From a virus (Duplodnaviria > Heunggongvirae > Uroviricota > Caudoviricetes): a stretch of DNA of 26,357 nt. Shown here piece after piece: positions 1-14,976 of this stretch. The notes beneath the pieces were generated by a model. That model saw nothing but the letters and a program-made list of their open reading frames with translations. It was not told the DNA's origin and searched no databases. Made by a program: the position numbers and the translations under genes. The DNA lies in IMG/VR virus record IMGVR_UViG_2541047815_000002, positions 1-26,357 of that record. One strand, given 5' to 3'. Within the stretch, counting starts at the first letter, position 1, and each line of letters opens with the position of its first letter.

Positions 1-1053
1 TTACGGGGTAATGCCAACCGCTGCCGCCACTTTGTCGCCACTTGGCAGCGTTGCCAGAGGATTGAAACGGAGCGCCGTTTCCAGATGATCCGGTGCCAGA
101 TGTGCGTAACGCATAGTCATTTTTATATCGTGGTGTCCGAGAATTTTTTGTAAGGCCAGAATGTTTCCACCCGACATCATGAAGTGCGCCGCAAACGTAT
201 GGCGCAGAACGTGTGTGAGTTGACCGCGAGGGAGCACGATAGACGTTTTTTCCATCACGGATAAAAATTGAAAATAGCAGTCTGTGAAGAAATTGAACCC
301 ATCAAGCGCCATGATCTCTTCGTAAAGCTCTTTACTGATAGGGATGCTTCTGTTTTTCTTCCCCTTCGTTCTTACAAAGGTAATTCGGTATTTGGTCACC
401 TGTGAACGAGTAAGATTTACGGCTTCTCGCCAGCGTGCGCCTGTGCTTAAGCATATCTTAACTACCAGTGCCAGAATTGGGTCCTGACGTTTGCAATCAG
501 CCAGTAATTCAACAATCTGCTCATGGGTAAGCCATGCCATCTCTTTTTCTGCGATGGTGAATTTTCGCATGTTCTCCAGTGGGTTCGGATACGACCATTC
601 GCCCAGGCGGGATAGTTCGCTAAAAACACTACTTAGATAGCTTTGCTCCAGGTTAATGGTGACCGGGCTTGCTCCTTTCTTCCATTTCTCGCTGAAGTAG
701 ATCTCACCTGTCAGGCGTTTATCTCGATAGTGGGCAAACATTTTAGAGGTTAGATCAGTTGCAAGGGGATTGCCCAGAGCGTCAACCATCAGCAGCAATT
801 TGTCATAGACATGCTGCCCAGCAGTCAGTGATTTACCATGTAGTTTGAACCATAGCTCAACCACGTCTTTCAGTGTTCGACGATCCACTGATTCACCTAG
901 CCAGGGCTTTGCTTCGGTTTCTTCCATCGTGTGACGCTCAAAAGCCAGTGCTTCGCCTTTGGTGGCGAATTGTTTACGCACACGACGCCCACTACGTCCG
1001 GCGGGGTAACATTCGCAAAGCCATTTTCCTGTGGTGAGTTTTCGTACAGCCAT
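1..1053 (-). CDS. int: Tyrosine integrase (P2/186-type site-specific recombinase)
   Basis: Minus-strand ORF. The preferred start is the ATG at 1051-1053 (protein MAVRKLTTGKW...), preceded by GGAGGG about 7 nt upstream on the coding strand. C-terminal region has the tyrosine-recombinase pattern (HVLRHTFA ... GHHDIKMTMRYAHL). The stop codon is at the very start of the window, so attL, if present, lies outside. Confidence 0.9.
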   Translation of the reverse strand: MAVRKLTTGKWLCECYPAGRSGRRVRKQFATKGEALAFERHTMEETEAKPWLGESVDRRTLKDVVELWFKLHGKSLTAGQHVYDKLLLMVDALGNPLATDLTSKMFAHYRDKRLTGEIYFSEKWKKGASPVTINLEQSYLSSVFSELSRLGEWSYPNPLENMRKFTIAEKEMAWLTHEQIVELLADCKRQDPILALVVKICLSTGARWREAVNLTRSQVTKYRITFVRTKGKKNRSIPISKELYEEIMALDGFNFFTDCYFQFLSVMEKTSIVLPRGQLTHVLRHTFAAHFMMSGGNILALQKILGHHDIKMTMRYAHLAPDHLETALRFNPLATLPSGDKVAAAVGITP

Positions 1054-1241
1054 AAAAAATGCCCTCCAATAGAGAGCATTTTTACTGTATGTATAACCAG
1101 TGTCAATGTATGAAATCCTGCGACCATACATCTCACTGAAGCCATAATGAAGTAGGCTATTCTTTTTGCTATGTGATCATGTAACTTTTGCGGTTAACCT
1201 GTGGCTCATTTTTATTTTAGGCGCAGATATAAAAGCAAAAG

Positions 1242-8304: not shown

Positions 8305-9423
8305 ATGTATCTTTTCAAGTATTACCGTCCGGACTTCTTCTTCGAGAAAGCTATTCGTTATAATGAATTATATTTTTCCGCTCCTGCGCAATTGAATGAT
8401 CCTAATGATCTCAATATAGATTATCGTTTTGATAATAAATTGAAATTATGGGATATTTTATTGCGTTCTCCTTGCGATAAATCCTATGAAAATTTGAGTC
8501 ACATATTAGATTTGAGTAATTTGAAGATACATAAGGGATTGAATCGTATTTTTAGAGGAAAAAAAATAAAAAGTAGCATTGAGTCATTAGATAGCCTGTT
8601 TGACTCACACGTTGATGAGATACGTAAGATCATAAATGATGGTTTACTACCTATCAATGTGATTAATTCCGCTATTTATGGGAATATTCCTGAACCACGC
8701 CAATTTTTGGTCTCACTTTGCGAGAACAGTATCAAAGAAAGGTTGTATAGGAAAATAGTTCCTGCAGTATTCAGTGTGTCATTTTCAGCTAATGCGTTAG
8801 ATCGTATGATGTGGGCGCATTATGCTGCAGGCTTTAGTGGTTGTGTTGTGATTTATGAAACGCAGGATTTTAATATTAATGGCGTGCCACATCCTGGAAT
8901 GAAGCTAAGAGAAAATTTATTTTCATCAGATAAATTTAATTTTCCAGTTAAGCAAATAAAATATAGTAATCAGGCTAAAGAGGTTTCACTTCTAGACCCA
9001 AGCGCAAATGTTGCAGAGTTATTTTTAACTAAAAATAGATTTTGGAGATATGAAGCTGAATATCGAATGTTTATTCCAGAGGCAAATGCAGGAATAGGGA
9101 GTGAGCGGCATGTTCAAAGACGCGTAAATCGAAATATTGGACATATTTTTCATCATGATGCTAATGTTGTTAAAGGGATCATTTTTGGTCCTAGAATGTG
9201 TGAAATGAAAAAAGAAAGCATATGGAATTGTATCAAGTCAAATATGGAGAATTCAAATTCAACAATATGTTATTTTTTTGACTCTGAGTTATCAGCATCA
9301 GGAAAGATTACTATTTCAAAAGGGCAACGAGCGGAAAAAATGAAAAATTTCCCTTTGTTCAGGAACAAGTTAAGTCAGACGGAAATGGCTAAAGTTTTGA
9401 AGGAAATTGGCATTACGAACTAA
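8305..9423 (+). CDS. DUF2971-like protein (372 aa), accessory cargo gene, candidate anti-phage/abortive-infection factor
   Basis: Lies in a strongly AT-rich island (by eye) that contrasts with the phage backbone. From memory it resembles the DUF2971 pattern: N-terminal LFKYYR ... LYFSAPAQLNDPND, then MWAHYA and RYEAEYRMF. It occupies the tin/old-equivalent hotspot downstream of A. Confidence 0.6.
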   Translation: MYLFKYYRPDFFFEKAIRYNELYFSAPAQLNDPNDLNIDYRFDNKLKLWDILLRSPCDKSYENLSHILDLSNLKIHKGLNRIFRGKKIKSSIESLDSLFDSHVDEIRKIINDGLLPINVINSAIYGNIPEPRQFLVSLCENSIKERLYRKIVPAVFSVSFSANALDRMMWAHYAAGFSGCVVIYETQDFNINGVPHPGMKLRENLFSSDKFNFPVKQIKYSNQAKEVSLLDPSANVAELFLTKNRFWRYEAEYRMFIPEANAGIGSERHVQRRVNRNIGHIFHHDANVVKGIIFGPRMCEMKKESIWNCIKSNMENSNSTICYFFDSELSASGKITISKGQRAEKMKNFPLFRNKLSQTEMAKVLKEIGITN

Positions 9424-9488
9424 CCTAACAACAGTGCATGCCTATGCTGCCTGAATTTGCATGACCGTTTGAGGATCGTTTTTGCTAA

Positions 9489-9513
9489 GGCCCGCCAGAA
9501 CTGGCGGGCTTTT
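9489..9513 (+). terminator. Rho-independent terminator after the 372-aa cargo gene
   Basis: GC-rich hairpin (GGCCCGCCA / loop GAAC / TGGCGGGCT) followed by a TTTT run. Confidence 0.5.
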
Positions 9514-9558
9514 GCGTGGATCAGGCACCTGCATGAAAACCACTACACAAAGCGGGCA

Positions 9559-9577
9559 GGCGTGGCGGGGATACGAG
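9559..9577. other. Candidate cos (cohesive-end) core
   Basis: GGCGTGGCGGGGA matches the first 13 nt of the 186/P2 19-nt cohesive end as I recall it (GGCGTGGCGGGGAAAGCAT / GGCGAGGCGGGGAAAGCAC). It sits in a short GC-rich patch inside the AT-rich island. The distal 6 nt differ from memory, so this is uncertain. Confidence 0.35.
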
Positions 9578-9679
9578 CGCGCGCTAACTCATAAATCCTA
9601 GATTATTAGTGGATTTATCTCATTGAAATGTGCACTATTCCCAGCATTGAGTTGTACCAGATGTCTTTATGGAGGGACT

Positions 9680-11446
9680 GTGGCTTTTGTAACTGATATT
9701 CGGCTTGAAGATAATGCTATTGCTGCACCTGCGACAGCACAGGTTATGGCTCAGAGGCTAGGATCTGTATTACGTAAGAGATATGAAGAATTCATCCATA
9801 AAAGAGAGTGTGCACCAGGCCAAGCAGACTATGATGTAAAAATGGCTAGCAGGGCTTTAGCTGCATTCACTATGTATCAGTTAGGATGTGTGGATGATAA
9901 GTATGCAGGGGAGTCTGTATGTGATAGTAGTGAAGATGGTGGTATAGATGGAATAGCAATCAACCATAACGAAAAAATCGTTGTTGTTGTTCAATCAAAA
10001 TTTCACCAATCGGGAAACGGCACTTGGACAAGAGCCGATTTTATGTGTTTTAAGGATGCTTGTGAGAAGCTACAAAGTGAAAGATACGAATTATTTGATT
10101 CCATATTGCAAAATAAAAGCGGGGAAATAAGTGCGGCTTTAAGTAGTTTTGAATACAAGTTCATCTTTGCGATGGCGCATACAGGTAAAAAAGGTGCTGC
10201 AGAGGAAATATTAAATGATATGCGGGAATGGCAATATCAATTAAACGCTGCAGCTTTTACACCTGAGGATGAGCCTAAAGAGAACTGGGGATTTCAGGTT
10301 CATTTAATATCCTCTGAAGATATGATGCATTGGTTACAGAATGGCTCTCGAAATCAAATTGATCTTAACAGGGTTGAAATTGAGCGTTTTGGATTTTTGA
10401 ATGAACCATATCAAGCTTTTTACGGGGCTATTAGTGGTGATCAAGTTGCAGAATGGTGGGAAGAGCATGGTGCTCGATTATTTACAAAAAACATAAGGAA
10501 TATGCTTGGTAAAACAGAAGTGAATGAGGAAATAAAAAAGACAGCTATAGATAATCCTGATATGTTTTGGTTTTATAATAATGGGATTACTGTACTGGTT
10601 AAGGAAGTTGTTCCTCATAGACGAAACGCAGCTCCTAATATAGAGAGAGGGATTTTTGATTTTCGTGATGTAAGTGTCATTAATGGTGCACAAACAGTCA
10701 GTAGTATTGGCGCATGTAAAGATGCGCTTGGTGAAAACATATATAGACTCAAAGTGCCAGCTAGATTCATTGTTATAGATGATGATACTGATAATTTAAC
10801 TGCAAATGCAATTACAAAAGCTAACAATTTCCAAAATAGAGTATTGGGAAGAGATTTTGCATCGCAGCAGGCAGATCAACATAGATTGGCAAGGGAGTTA
10901 GTGCTTGAAGGATATCAATATCAGTTACTAAGAACAGATGAAGATCATTCACAGACAAATACGAAAGTCATTGACTTGGATGAGGCGCTCAATGCACTCG
11001 CATGTTTAAGTAAAAATAATACGGTTGTATCGACACTAAAATCAAATCGCGGTAGGTTTTTTGAAAATTTTGAAGGCTCTCTATATAAAACTATTTTCAA
11101 TCCAAGATTAAGTGGTTTAAAACTTATCAATACTGTTCTACATTTTAGAGTTATAGATAAGTTGATCGGTAAAACATTACTATCAGTAGATAAAACGACC
11201 CATAGTCGCAAGCATTTAATTATTACGCATGGTAATAGATACTATGCGTCTGTACTATTGAGCAACGTTTCTGGGATACATAATAGCTCAGAAATTCTTG
11301 TTCCAGATGAAAAAAATCTTTCCGAAGAATTAAGTGCATTAATTCAACGTGCTGAAGAGTACATTGAAGATAATTACCCGAATGCCTATCCGGCAAGATT
11401 TTTTGCAAATCCAACGAAAATACAAGAGTTATACGATAATGTTTAA
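9680..11446 (+). CDS. AIPR-like (abortive infection phage resistance family) protein with putative N-terminal PD-(D/E)xK-like motif
   Basis: Long ORF in AT-rich DNA. Start is uncertain: TTG at 9623, GTG at 9680 with GGAGGG upstream, or ATG at 9746. Motifs DGGIDGI ... VVVVQSK (D...QxK, nuclease-like) and NNGIT ... INGAQT, which I associate with the AIPR family. Followed immediately by a strong terminator. Confidence 0.55.
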   Translation: MAFVTDIRLEDNAIAAPATAQVMAQRLGSVLRKRYEEFIHKRECAPGQADYDVKMASRALAAFTMYQLGCVDDKYAGESVCDSSEDGGIDGIAINHNEKIVVVVQSKFHQSGNGTWTRADFMCFKDACEKLQSERYELFDSILQNKSGEISAALSSFEYKFIFAMAHTGKKGAAEEILNDMREWQYQLNAAAFTPEDEPKENWGFQVHLISSEDMMHWLQNGSRNQIDLNRVEIERFGFLNEPYQAFYGAISGDQVAEWWEEHGARLFTKNIRNMLGKTEVNEEIKKTAIDNPDMFWFYNNGITVLVKEVVPHRRNAAPNIERGIFDFRDVSVINGAQTVSSIGACKDALGENIYRLKVPARFIVIDDDTDNLTANAITKANNFQNRVLGRDFASQQADQHRLARELVLEGYQYQLLRTDEDHSQTNTKVIDLDEALNALACLSKNNTVVSTLKSNRGRFFENFEGSLYKTIFNPRLSGLKLINTVLHFRVIDKLIGKTLLSVDKTTHSRKHLIITHGNRYYASVLLSNVSGIHNSSEILVPDEKNLSEELSALIQRAEEYIEDNYPNAYPARFFANPTKIQELYDNV

Positions 11447-11450
11447 ACTA

Positions 11451-11475
11451 AAGGGAGGTTGCCTCCCTTTTTTTT
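11451..11475. terminator. Bidirectional rho-independent terminator between AIPR-like gene and portal gene
   Basis: AAGGGAGG-loop-CCTCCCTT hairpin followed by a T8 run on the + strand, with an A-rich run on the other side serving the convergent Q gene. Confidence 0.7.
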
Positions 11476-11477
11476 AA

Positions 11478-12506
11478 TTAGAAATGGTATTCTTGGAATT
11501 CAATAACACCTTCTTCTATGAAATTGTTTATTTCTTGTAATCTTTTTTGCAATGGCAATAATTCATTACGTACAAATACTTTACTCGCCTTCTCTACATC
11601 TCCAAAGCCCCCAACATTATTAGGCATTATCCCCATCATTTGCGGCGGCACACGGTGTGCCGCCATCATGTCGTCCCGACTCACGTTCTTGATATTCAGA
11701 AACTCATCCTTCGCCGCGACTTCTGACAACGGGATAATCTGAAGCCCGTCCTTTTTGCCGTTAGGAGAGTACATAAACAGGTTGCGGAAGTTGCCTGGCC
11801 CTTTGGCGCTTTTCATTGCGTTGCGGAGGTTGTTCACATCTTCTTGGTTCTGCGCGGCATCGGTCATGTACATGATGAAACCTGCATGGCTGCCGTTGAT
11901 GTAATACTTACGGCGGAACAGTGTGGCGGACTCGTTGAGCAGGGCTGACGGGATGGCAGAAAGATAACCTGGCAGGCCGTAGATCTCCTGGTTGATGTCC
12001 GGTTCCATCAGATGAAAAATGCTGCCTTTCGTGAACTGATACGGCTGGGCTGTCATACCGTATTGCACAAACCAGTAGGTATCCAGGTCTAATCCGCGTC
12101 GGGTGTATTTTGCCAAAGCTGGCTCAAGGGCGATAACTTCACCAAAGCGGTTCGTGCGTTTCTCCAGGTAGGCGTTACCAAATACCAGATAGTCCTGCAC
12201 AAAACGCGAAAAAGCCTGCTGGCTAAGCAGCGGATGAGGGATATAGGTACTGGTCAGAATGTTGCACTTTACTGCAATCGGGGAACTGTGATGCACGGCG
12301 GCGCGGAAGGTGCGCGCCAGTCCATTAAAGCTGACGGGCGGCTCATACCAGCGATCCATCTGTACGCATTCCACATAGTCCAGCAGTTCGCGGCGGTCCA
12401 GCACGGGGATGGGATCACCAAAGCTGAAAGCCTCAGCCGTTGGGCCGTTGCTTGGTTTTGTGTCGTGATCAACTGTTACCTGCTTGGTGTTTTTACGTTT
12501 GCTCAT
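11478..12506 (-). CDS. Q: Portal protein (P2 gpQ family)
   Basis: 342 aa, the size and position of P2 Q. Last gene of the leftward P-Q late operon. Start ATG at 12504-12506 overlaps the stop of the upstream paralog. Confidence 0.9.
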   Translation of the reverse strand: MSKRKNTKQVTVDHDTKPSNGPTAEAFSFGDPIPVLDRRELLDYVECVQMDRWYEPPVSFNGLARTFRAAVHHSSPIAVKCNILTSTYIPHPLLSQQAFSRFVQDYLVFGNAYLEKRTNRFGEVIALEPALAKYTRRGLDLDTYWFVQYGMTAQPYQFTKGSIFHLMEPDINQEIYGLPGYLSAIPSALLNESATLFRRKYYINGSHAGFIMYMTDAAQNQEDVNNLRNAMKSAKGPGNFRNLFMYSPNGKKDGLQIIPLSEVAAKDEFLNIKNVSRDDMMAAHRVPPQMMGIMPNNVGGFGDVEKASKVFVRNELLPLQKRLQEINNFIEEGVIEFQEYHF

Positions 12507-13210
12507 TCTGCCAGTTCCTTGCTAGCGAGAGGCCATTCGCACATAAACAGCATTTTCCAGTCCTCTTCTGATAATTCTTTTTTCATATCGTTCAGCCAGT
12601 TATCAGTAAACAACATTGCTCCAGATGCTGCTGCGTCATCTGCGGTGAACACCATGCTGGTTACGCTGTTGTTTCTGCATAGCTTTTTATATTCCTGCCG
12701 TGCCTCTGGGTTAGGGCTGGGAGTGGTGTAGTAGGTGGCGTGGTAGTGTGCGTGCATAGAAATCCCTTTAGCGATGGCAATCATATTTCTCGGTGATTCA
12801 CTCCAGGCATACTCTGACACGTAAACATTTCCACTGAGTGCGGAGGTGAGACTGCTGAGGTCGGTAAAATAAATTACTGCACCATTCGGAAGCTCCAGAT
12901 GACTTTTGCCTGATTTTATTTTTCCAGTGTGCGTATAAGCTGCGGCCTGGCTTAAGAATGCTGATACACAGGCTTTGATTGCCTGCGCAGATGCTGTGCT
13001 GCAGCAGAGGAAAATCTGGTTACGCCCGGTATGCAGTGCATCGTTCAGGGCTTCATAGGAAAAAAAGAAATCCGCGCCTGCCTGGCGCATTTTTGTGAGT
13101 ACACGGTTTCTACTCTTTGGGCCAGTGTTCCACTCATACTGGTAAGCAAAGAAAAAGCTATCCACCGGAAGTCCCGCGATAGTCATGAGGTTAGTTGGGA
13201 TTGGGGGCAT
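12503..13210 (-). CDS. Terminase large-subunit ATPase-domain paralog (truncated, degenerate Walker motifs)
   Basis: 235-aa ORF inserted between P and Q, overlapping both by a few nt. It aligns by eye to the central ATPase core of the adjacent gpP (EALNDALHTGRNQIFL vs EALIDALLTGRNQIFL; LPNGAVIYF vs LPNGATLYF; TYYTTPS vs TYFSTPS; LFMCEWP vs LLMCEFV). It lacks the gpP N-terminal roughly 150 aa and the C-terminal nuclease domain. Walker A-like KSRQIGAT in gpP is KMRQAGAD here (13070-13093), and Walker B LYLDE is VYVSE (Ser codon 12815-12817). Confidence 0.7.
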   Translation of the reverse strand: MPPIPTNLMTIAGLPVDSFFFAYQYEWNTGPKSRNRVLTKMRQAGADFFFSYEALNDALHTGRNQIFLCCSTASAQAIKACVSAFLSQAAAYTHTGKIKSGKSHLELPNGAVIYFTDLSSLTSALSGNVYVSEYAWSESPRNMIAIAKGISMHAHYHATYYTTPSPNPEARQEYKKLCRNNSVTSMVFTADDAAASGAMLFTDNWLNDMKKELSEEDWKMLFMCEWPLASKELAE

Positions 13211-14976
13211 CAAAAAATCTCCACAATATTGCTGGTATTGGCGGATTCGCCCTGCAGCGGTTCGTTAAACAGTGCGTGCATCGTTGCCCAGGCCAGATCG
13301 GCGTGGCTGGCTTCTTCGCTGCGGCTGGCTTCATAGGTTGGGCGGTTGCCGCTCGCGGTGGTGGCGCGACGGATTGCCATGAATGACTGCGCTATGTCGG
13401 TGTGTCCGGCGTCAAACTCCAGACGGCGGTGGCTGATAATGTCGTAGGCCTTGAGTACCAGGGCGTTTTTAACATTGGGGTTATAGACAAACTCCCGGAC
13501 GGCTGGAAAAAACGCTTTCACGTTCTCGTAAACCCCGTGGCCGACACCTGTCGAGTCGATGCCGATGTAGGTCACGTTGTACTGCTCGGTCAGTTTTTTG
13601 ATGGCGTCAGCCTGGGCGCGGAAGTCCATCCCACGCCACTGGTGACGCTCAAGAATGCGGAACTTACCACCAGGCACGGCTGGCGGTGCCACCACTACGC
13701 ATCCGGCGCTGTCGCCGTTTTGCGTACCTTTTGCCGGGTCATAACCGATCCACACTTCGCGCCAGCCAAACGGGCGCAGAGCCAGTGCATGAAAGTCGGT
13801 CCAGACTTCCCAGCTGTCCACCATGCACGCCTGCAGCTCGCTGAGCGGGAACACGGACGCGAGATCGTCCACAAACTCGCACATCAGCAGGTTCTGGTAT
13901 TCGTCCGGGCTGTACTCCATGCGCAACTGGTCAAGGTCGAACAGGTTACAGCCGCCGCGCACCGCATCTTCCACGGTGACTATCTGGCGGTATTGCCCGT
14001 CTGCGCACAGCAGGCCGGGGGCCAGATTGCTGTGGGACAGGTCGATGTCCACCTTGTCGGCCTTGTTGCGCCCACGGTTGAACAGCGCACCGGACCAGAA
14101 CGGATAAGCACTGTGTGTCAGGCTGGATGGCGTGGAAAAATAGGTTTGTCGCCATTTTTTGTGAATAGCCATACCGGAAGCCACTTTGCGCAGCTCCTGG
14201 AATTTCGGTATCCAGAAATATTCATCCAGATACAGGTTGCCGTGATAACTCTGGGCCGTGCGGGCATTGGTGCCGAGGAAGTAAAGCGTGGCTCCGTTAG
14301 GAAGCACCATCGGATCGCCTTTCAGCTCCACCTCGACTTCTTTGGCGAAGTCTATGATGTACTGCTTAAAGACGTGAGCCTGTGCCTTACTGGCAGAAAG
14401 GAAAATCTGGTTACGTCCGGTAAGCAGGGCGTCAATCAGGGCTTCACGGGCAAAGTAAAAGGTCGCGCCGATCTGGCGTGACTTCAGCAGGTTGCGGATG
14501 CGGTTGGTTTTTCCGGCTTCCCACCAGTGGCGCTGGTAGTTGAACATGGAGGAATGGAAAATTTCTTCCAGCTTCTCAATCTGTTCATCGGTGAAAACAT
14601 TCTTTTCCGGCTGACGGCGCGGGCCTTTGTTGCGGTTGGCGACGTTAGGGTTTAAGTCGGCTTCGTTACCGCCATTGTTAAACTTGCCGATCCGCGCGTG
14701 GCGCTCCGACTGGCGCGCCAGCAGGTCAATTTCTTTGAAATCTTTCCCTTCTTTGTGCTCCTTCATAATGAGCTGGCAGTAGCGTGCGGCGGTGGTGAGC
14801 TGCATCTGATCCAGCGGCCCATAGTCACCCCACTTGTCGCGTTTTTTCCAGCTGTGAACGGTTGCAACTTTCTCGCCCAGCATTTCAGCAATGCGGGCTA
14901 CGCGGTATCCCTGAAAGTACAGCAGCATGGCCTGCCGACGGGGATCGAGATCTGCGGGTGTCAGTGTGGTGTTCAT
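13210..14976 (-). CDS. P: Terminase large subunit, ATPase (P2 gpP family)
   Basis: 588 aa. N-terminal HTH-like region, deviant Walker A KSRQIGAT (lambda gpA-like), Walker B LYLDE, C-terminal nuclease region. Divergent from O across the late-promoter region. Confidence 0.9.
   Translation of the reverse strand: MNTTLTPADLDPRRQAMLLYFQGYRVARIAEMLGEKVATVHSWKKRDKWGDYGPLDQMQLTTAARYCQLIMKEHKEGKDFKEIDLLARQSERHARIGKFNNGGNEADLNPNVANRNKGPRRQPEKNVFTDEQIEKLEEIFHSSMFNYQRHWWEAGKTNRIRNLLKSRQIGATFYFAREALIDALLTGRNQIFLSASKAQAHVFKQYIIDFAKEVEVELKGDPMVLPNGATLYFLGTNARTAQSYHGNLYLDEYFWIPKFQELRKVASGMAIHKKWRQTYFSTPSSLTHSAYPFWSGALFNRGRNKADKVDIDLSHSNLAPGLLCADGQYRQIVTVEDAVRGGCNLFDLDQLRMEYSPDEYQNLLMCEFVDDLASVFPLSELQACMVDSWEVWTDFHALALRPFGWREVWIGYDPAKGTQNGDSAGCVVVAPPAVPGGKFRILERHQWRGMDFRAQADAIKKLTEQYNVTYIGIDSTGVGHGVYENVKAFFPAVREFVYNPNVKNALVLKAYDIISHRRLEFDAGHTDIAQSFMAIRRATTASGNRPTYEASRSEEASHADLAWATMHALFNEPLQGESANTSNIVEIF

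Follow-up and report, generated by a model that had tools for sequence, protein, structure and literature searches.

The gpA-gpQ region of P2-like prophages, beside cos, is a defence hotspot for which 1,650 arrangements at 18,150 loci have been catalogued (Rousset et al., 2022; PMC9122126). One entry of that catalogue, system #74, is labelled "AIPR" and has 56 occurrences (Table S5B of Rousset et al., 2022; PMC9122126); the sequence printed for it covers roughly residues 1-400, agrees at every position with the protein described here, and likewise comes from a gpA-gpQ locus (PMC9122126). The accession of our protein, WP_021542068, appears at least 12 times in the accessible part of Table S5A of the same paper (PMC9122126). 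The exact protein at the exact locus is already known, having been both annotated and catalogued. System #74 was not cloned in that work, and the hotspot was not split there into parts before and after cos (Rousset et al., 2022; PMC9122126).

[quoted passage not shown] It shares 33% identity over 400 residues with our protein, has the same D..GID, VQSK, NNGIT, NGAQT, and NNxQN motifs, and stands in the same layout, with cos, then TGCGCG, then cargo. The P4 gene sits on a satellite, whereas the gene described here is carried by a helper-type phage.

The family also takes in AbiU of Lactococcus lactis (AbiUi/AbiU1), the original study of which is reportedly that of Dai et al. in 2001. The lactococcal protein provides the only phenotype recorded for the family, and the protection is modest: AbiU alone lowers the efficiency of plating 10- to 100-fold and delays phage transcription (PMC13064643). 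AbiU has also been reported, in a 2026 study, from P2 elements as well as from P4 ones. Set beside these systems, the gene that we describe is likely to be a self-contained AIPR/AbiU cargo in the cos-portal half of the gpA-gpQ hotspot, encoding a putative single-gene anti-phage nuclease.

The window (the whole stretch of DNA that was analysed, 26,357 nucleotides) is a 186/P2-like Escherichia coli prophage, and its interval 9430-11480 recurs at 100% identity in NZ_CP049967 and in three further complete genomes. The RefSeq annotation of NZ_CP049967 begins with an integrase, a DUF4041 gene, CI, CII, Fil, and other early genes, and continues with a Dam methylase, a replication endonuclease homologous to P2 A, a small hypothetical gene, and a DinI-like (Tum-like) gene. 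Next are a DUF2971 gene and the AIPR gene WP_021542068. The portal gene follows, together with a short gene resembling terminase, both read in the opposite direction, and the terminase ATPase and the head, lysis, and tail genes complete the order. The run of replication endonuclease, DinI-like gene, DUF2971 gene, cos, AIPR gene, and portal gene places the locus in the gpA-gpQ hotspot.

The reading frame is uninterrupted on the plus strand from 9623 to 11446, 607 codons when the translation is counted from a TTG, and at 36.5% G+C against 54.5% for the structural genes it is the long AT-rich frame that the earlier note had described. That note had begun the gene at 9623, and here it has to be corrected. 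All 38 aligned homologues (52-87% identity) start with MAFV or MALV at the position of a GTG at 9680, the ribosome-binding site GGAGGG (9671-9676) precedes this codon, and RefSeq also places the start of WP_021542068, named "AIPR family protein", there. TTG 9623 was rejected as the start on the agreement of the 38 homologues and RefSeq on GTG 9680, and by the same agreement the first 19 codons of the mechanical frame are taken as noncoding. The AIPR/AbiU-family gene therefore occupies 9680-11446 on the plus strand and encodes 588 residues between a GTG start and a TAA stop.

The gene lies between cos and the portal gene, in surroundings that can be delimited by comparison. Upstream, a conserved cos-flanking block on the right-end side of the packaged genome (9430-9558, plus strand) includes, at 9487-9515, a hairpin rich in G+C that runs into TTTT (-23.6 kcal/mol, z -4.8), and the roughly 160 bp from 9430 to 9589 have a counterpart, 80-100% identical, in 1249 of 5426 E. 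coli genomes. The block ends at a 19-mer on the plus strand, GGCGTGGCGGGGATACGAG (9559-9577), which is homologous to the cos of phage 186: the 186 record annotates GGCGTGGCGGGGAAAGCAT, at its positions 1-19, as cos, with 13 of 19 bases in common. The same 19-mer is present in nine of the ten other E. coli loci examined, and the tenth (L010) differs at the last base. Since the annotated cohesive end of 186 aligns here and the 70 bp preceding our 19-mer find their counterpart in the final 70 bp of 186, the cos call is sound, and the terminator and cos-like element that had been proposed upstream of the gene are both confirmed. By homology with 186, the proposal that the gene lies between cos and Q at the extreme left of the packaged genome is also right, and on that analogy the gene would begin about 120 bp from the left end once packaged. 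A left-end packaged position is common to all cargo in the cos-portal interval.

The last conserved bases after cos are CGCGCGC (9578-9584, plus strand); in an alignment of 11 loci with 186 and P2, similarity ends 6-7 bp past the 19-mer, which puts the left edge of the variable cargo at about 9585. From there a leader containing GGAGGG runs to 9679 on the plus strand, and it is the same in four loci that carry the AIPR gene (L001 and L012-L014) except for one base in L012; a consensus scan found no promoter between cos and the start codon. Downstream, the AIPR and portal genes converge on a terminator-like hairpin and T-run that could serve both strands (11450-11477), in which a terminator scan finds a 9-bp stem followed by TTTTTTT, with a folding energy of -14.6 kcal/mol on one strand and -13.5 kcal/mol on the other. 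The portal gene, a homologue of P2 Q and 186 W with a Pfam Phage_portal match, occupies 11478-12506 on the minus strand. Its C-terminal 20 or so residues vary with the neighbouring cargo and match in three AIPR-carrying loci (the window, L013, and L014) except for one E/K difference, and DNA similarity to other portal genes begins only about 40-120 bp inside the gene. The last 20 or so portal codons (about 11478-11540) belong to the exchanged cassette.

Assignment to the AIPR family, made in the earlier note from motifs, is borne out by a profile search: Pfam AIPR (PF10592) matches at 121.5 bits against a cut-off of 25 (E 7e-35) over profile positions 1-305 of 308. The PADLOC AbiU profile (PDLC02357), for which the library gives no curated threshold, matches residues 77-563 over profile positions 45-512 of 537 (E 7.4e-25, 86 bits), and PHROGs phrog_1841, "Abi alpha-like abortive infection mechanism", matches over the full length (E 7e-173). 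All four motifs that had been quoted are in the protein: in the numbering of the 588-residue form, DGGIDGI is at residues 86-92, VVVVQSK at 101-107, NNGIT at 300-304, and INGAQT at 334-339. The NNG, NGxQ, and NxQ motifs that mark AIPR proteins lie on a ParB/sulfiredoxin-like core. Assignment to MzaE (NCBIfam NF041935) was rejected, with 58 bits against a cut-off of 1050 and a match to the AIPR core only; an MZA system was likewise rejected, as the gene is flanked by cos and the portal gene, with no MzaA-D genes beside it.

An AlphaFold2 model built on a 38-sequence alignment (mean pLDDT 84, pTM 0.67) has three parts: a PD-(D/Q)xK domain resembling those of FokI and MspJI at the N-terminus, an AIPR core of the ParB/sulfiredoxin type, and a C-terminal region made of helices. 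The first of these, a predicted PD-(D/E)xK-type endonuclease domain of about residues 20-225 (9737-10354, plus strand), contains the catalytic-type motif D82-x3-D86-G-G-I-D90 (9923-9949, plus strand) and Q105-S-K107 (9992-10000, plus strand). The AIPR domain, residues 268-563 in the Pfam match (10481-11368, plus strand), takes in the ParB/sulfiredoxin-like core, with NNGIT at 10577-10591 and INGAQT at 10679-10696 on the plus strand, and then the helical C-terminal region. The best structural matches of the model are DNA endonuclease domains (AspBHI, FokI, MspJI, and N.BspD6I), and a second, weaker group of matches has the ParB/sulfiredoxin fold. In the model D90 stands immediately before the strand of residues 91-95 and Q105-S-K107 lies inside the strand of residues 100-107, a predicted placement that is usual for PD-(D/E)xK catalytic residues; that fold is defined by a core in which strand 2 is preceded by an acidic residue and strand 3 carries (D/E/Q)xK, and the model has both.

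Conservation falls on the same places. Among 58 relatives of 18-40% identity, D82, D86, G88, and D90 of the nuclease motif are invariant, as are N271, R273, N300, N301, G302, N335, G336, Q338, N383, Q385, Y414, and Y469 in the AIPR part, and Q105 and K107 are among the positions conserved in at least 90%. Conservation in the family is thus highest in the nuclease motif and in the ParB-like motifs. Profile and structure databases give less. Pfam Mrr_cat matches exactly over D82-K107 at 13.7 bits against a cut-off of 21 (E 0.068), below threshold; searches of PDB sequences with the protein and with the 38-sequence profile returned chance matches only (E >= 0.46), and a Foldseek search of the PDB found nothing. 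The nuclease-like D...QxK that the earlier note had pointed to is therefore upheld as a motif that is present, conserved, and in keeping with the fold, but not as a profile match, and the nuclease is a predicted one, assigned on fold and motif. The build agrees with the domain description of Makarova et al., a 2026 review superimposed an AbiU model on FokI (PMC13064643), and a 2024 preprint counts AbiU-1 as a PD-(D/E)xK system of a single gene. On the AIPR half, Pfam gave no ParBc, DUF262, or DndB match at E values up to 10, so the link to ParB rests on the fold and the literature. In DndB and DUF262 proteins the corresponding motifs, DGQHR and DGQQR, contain an arginine. NGAQT is without it, and nucleotide binding by our protein is accordingly uncertain.

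The prediction of a DNA-cutting domain bears directly on the strongest of the competing explanations, namely that the protein acts on RNA or on transcription rather than by cutting DNA, and that its effect is a delay of phage transcription. AbiU is indeed listed as delaying phage RNA transcription (PMC13064643), and older comparative work tied AIPR proteins to HEPN RNase domains. The best structural matches nevertheless are the DNA endonuclease domains of AspBHI, FokI, MspJI, and N.BspD6I, inspection by eye saw no R-x4-6-H motif of HEPN proteins among the conserved C-terminal residues, and delayed transcription could itself result from DNA damage. We regard an RNA target as improbable, if the most credible of the alternatives, and favour a nuclease that acts on DNA.

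The distribution of the family helps to judge a different proposal, that the gene serves the prophage in some way other than defence, either by interfering with the P4-type satellites that share cos or in the phage's own DNA metabolism. The gene adjoins cos, the sole sequence in common with P4 (Rousset et al., 2022; PMC9122126), and the absence of protection by the related P4 AIPR gene against eight phages would fit such a role. P4 satellites, however, themselves carry AIPR genes, and the name of the family comes from a phage-resistance phenotype (PMC13064643). In a search of 1.84 billion representatives of clusters at 50% identity we found 4026 AIPR relatives at E <= 0.001, 425 of them at E <= 1e-30, and most are 550-590 residues long and align over nearly their full length. 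Full-length relatives of 52-87% identity occur in many genera; a Klebsiella homologue, 81% identical, lies in the replication region of a lambdoid prophage, and a Pseudomonas homologue is a lone chromosomal gene among metabolic genes. Close homologues in settings such as these last two count against a function tied to P2-type phages and their satellites. Moreover, the gene is missing from about 99% of the prophages that have this cos (it is present in 12 of 1249 genomes), and the phage must therefore be able to grow without it. A role outside defence thus seems unlikely, slightly more so than an RNA target, and defence remains the preferred reading.

Whether the gene works alone is answered by what lies on the other side of cos. 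In the window the upstream cargo is the DUF2971/PDC-S31 gene (8305-9423), on the same strand as the AIPR gene; the two are adjacent and AT-rich, and both match defence-candidate profiles, as the halves of a two-gene system might. Between them, however, stand the conserved cos block and the strong hairpin, and the two genes assort independently. The identical AIPR protein is found downstream of DarT with a macro domain (locus L012), an AAA ATPase with HNH (L013), a ComF-like gene with a hypothetical one (L014), and, in the accessible part of Table S5A of Rousset et al., a KAP NTPase, and the DUF2971 gene is followed past cos in another strain by DprA instead of the AIPR gene. With at least four other upstream cargos, this independent assortment contradicts the two-gene system, which we consider very improbable, and it agrees with the earlier expectation of an independent unit; by these comparisons the AIPR gene is a self-sufficient single-gene module. 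Equally improbable is a decaying or inactive passenger, an idea that the rarity of the gene (12 of 5426 complete E. coli genomes) could suggest but that is contradicted by its full length in all 12 of these genomes, by three alleles that differ from the window by 5, 7, and 8 bases, all at third codon positions, with no amino-acid change among the alleles compared, and by the full-length relatives across many genera (4026 cluster representatives at E <= 0.001). Such synonymous-only variation is evidence of purifying selection. Pseudogenization and truncation, which the earlier note had named as grounds for doubt, were looked for in the same 12 genomes without being found, and from these alignments we take the gene to be real and intact.

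The position of the gene had seemed unusual for this phage family, an impression that holds only against the P2 and 186 reference genomes. In these, the distance from the 19-mer to the stop codon of the portal gene is 167 bp (P2) or 176 bp (186). All eight of the other E. coli prophages that we sampled, six picked at spaced ranks from a composite search plus two more, have a gene-containing gap between cos and the portal gene, of 926-2194 bp (0.9-2.2 kb of cargo). The interval is occupied by different genes in every sampled prophage: DprA, a TIR-domain protein, an HNH endonuclease with hypothetical genes, or several other hypothetical proteins, and, in BL21(DE3), a retron St85-family effector with a reverse transcriptase. 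The composite query, which joined the cos block to the 3' part of the portal gene, matched 1269 genomes, and the two parts lie within about 900 bp of each other in only 133 of them; among the short-gap places listed, all seven still contain an additional small gene, such as DUF4145, SieB, or DUF6953. In P2/186-like prophages of E. coli, the cos-portal interval is normally occupied by cargo.

These observations, together with the change of partners across cos, support a view of the P2 gpA-gpQ hotspot as two independently exchanging slots divided by cos, the second of which extends from 6-7 bp past the cohesive end to the last 20 or so codons of the portal gene. In a limited search of the hotspot literature we found no statement of this two-slot reading. 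The survey also corrects what is a natural misreading of the cos-portal interval from the P2 and 186 reference genomes.

How the protein would act can be sketched from its parts. A lysogen that expresses it would be protected against other phages, with the ParB-like core and the helical part serving as a sensor or a nucleotide-dependent switch and the N-terminal D...QxK domain as the effector, which may cut nucleic acid, most likely DNA. By analogy with FokI and MspJI, the nuclease domain is probably active after dimerisation, and the outcome could be either abortive infection or direct restriction. A more specific version, which we put forward tentatively and regard as rather doubtful, is that AIPR/AbiU proteins make up a class of restriction enzyme, as yet uncharacterised, in which a single chain is gated by a nucleotide. 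The AIPR core would bind NTP and clamp or sense foreign, possibly modified, DNA, and sensing would license dimerisation of the FokI/MspJI-type D...QxK cleavage domain. Limited searches of the literature and the PDB found no solved structure or defined mechanism for the AIPR/AbiU family. The discovery value of the locus is low, given its RefSeq name, the published hotspot catalogue, and the report of AbiU in P2 and P4. The remaining interest lies in the biochemistry of a family of about 4000 cluster representatives at 50% identity, for which the copy in E. coli, whose native cassette is compact (9585-11477), would be a convenient model.

The arrangement has a parallel in Salmonella phage RE-2010 (Felsduovirus, NC_019488), in which an AIPR gene, gp14, occupies the same slot between cos and the portal gene. 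There the cos core is at 9832, the AIPR gene follows at 9972-11636 (121 bp after the cos core), and the portal gene comes next on the opposite strand; PMC4661946 does not mention the Abi gene of this phage. The RE-2010 protein keeps D...QxK, NNGIT, and NGxQT but is only 23% identical and has 554 residues, which shows that the likeness is one of arrangement and not of recent common descent of the cassette. Lactococcal AbiU and our protein are both single proteins of similar size whose models superimpose on FokI. Their relationship is distant, visible only through profiles, and AbiU differs in being plasmid-borne in a Gram-positive host with a second gene, AbiUii (HEPN), that is absent here. Among restriction enzymes, FokI, MspJI, and AspBHI differ in the partner of the cleavage domain, which in them is a sequence-specific or an SRA-like modified-base reader and here is an AIPR domain. 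Membership of GmrSD/BrxU was considered and rejected: the protein has no DUF262 domain, no DGQQR motif, and no DUF1524 nuclease domain. GmrSD/BrxU proteins join DUF262 to an HNH-type DUF1524, in the reverse of the domain order seen here, whereas our protein has a predicted PD-(D/E)xK rather than an HNH nuclease and NGAQT in place of DGQQR. The shared pairing of a ParB-like domain with a nuclease may still offer an analogy for how the protein works, and, if AIPR/AbiU proteins were restriction enzymes of the kind proposed, they would be a functional counterpart of GmrSD/BrxU with a different nuclease and the domains in reverse order.

The gpA-gpQ hotspot, the variable cargo region of P2-like prophages that runs from replication gene A to portal gene Q, is made up of two slots that are divided by cos and exchanged independently. 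This follows from the edge of the conserved cos block, which in the window and in the E. coli comparison loci L002 and L006-L014 stops 6-7 bp past the 19-nt cohesive end, at CGCGCG[C] (window 9559-9584), with unrelated cargo directly 3' of it. In E. coli BL21(DE3), a defective P2-like prophage carries its retron St85-family effector and reverse transcriptase in this same slot between cos and the portal gene (L007; NC_012971, 877796-879955). The 3' end of the portal gene (window 11478-11540, minus strand) encodes a C-terminal stretch of ~20 residues that varies among prophages and tracks the neighbouring cargo, so the cassette recombination boundary falls within this gene. In the three AIPR-carrying loci compared, this C-terminal tail agrees (...RLQEINNFI[E/K]EGVIEFQEYHF).

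The AIPR module also travels between unrelated genomic contexts: one close homologue (81% identity) lies in a lambdoid Klebsiella prophage, beside replication genes (GCA_034865185), and another close one (58% identity) is isolated among metabolic genes on a Pseudomonas protegens contig. The window's prophage has a third cargo site, between the integrase and CI genes, occupied by a DUF4041-domain gene (window 1-1131, minus strand) that is partial here, as the window begins inside it, and whose product is 558 aa in the complete genome NZ_CP049967.

The cargo gene upstream of cos (window 8305-9423, plus strand; 33.5% G+C) encodes a member of the DUF2971 family, which scores 22.4 bits in Pfam, where the cut-off is 22, and has profile hits to PDC-S31, a candidate defence family in PADLOC (3e-23), and to phrog_1762. 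In phage 186 the equivalent position is occupied by orf97, which blocks infection by 186 when expressed from a plasmid. An additional 236-aa ORF (window 12503-13213, minus strand) separates the portal gene from the terminase gene; it resembles the large terminase in its ATPase part, with profile matches to Pfam Terminase_6N (3.7e-16) and phrog_3746 (2.5e-84). None of the ten other E. coli prophages in which the portal and terminase genes were inspected carries a counterpart; phage 186 has the same additional ORF, named 'similar to Orf12'.
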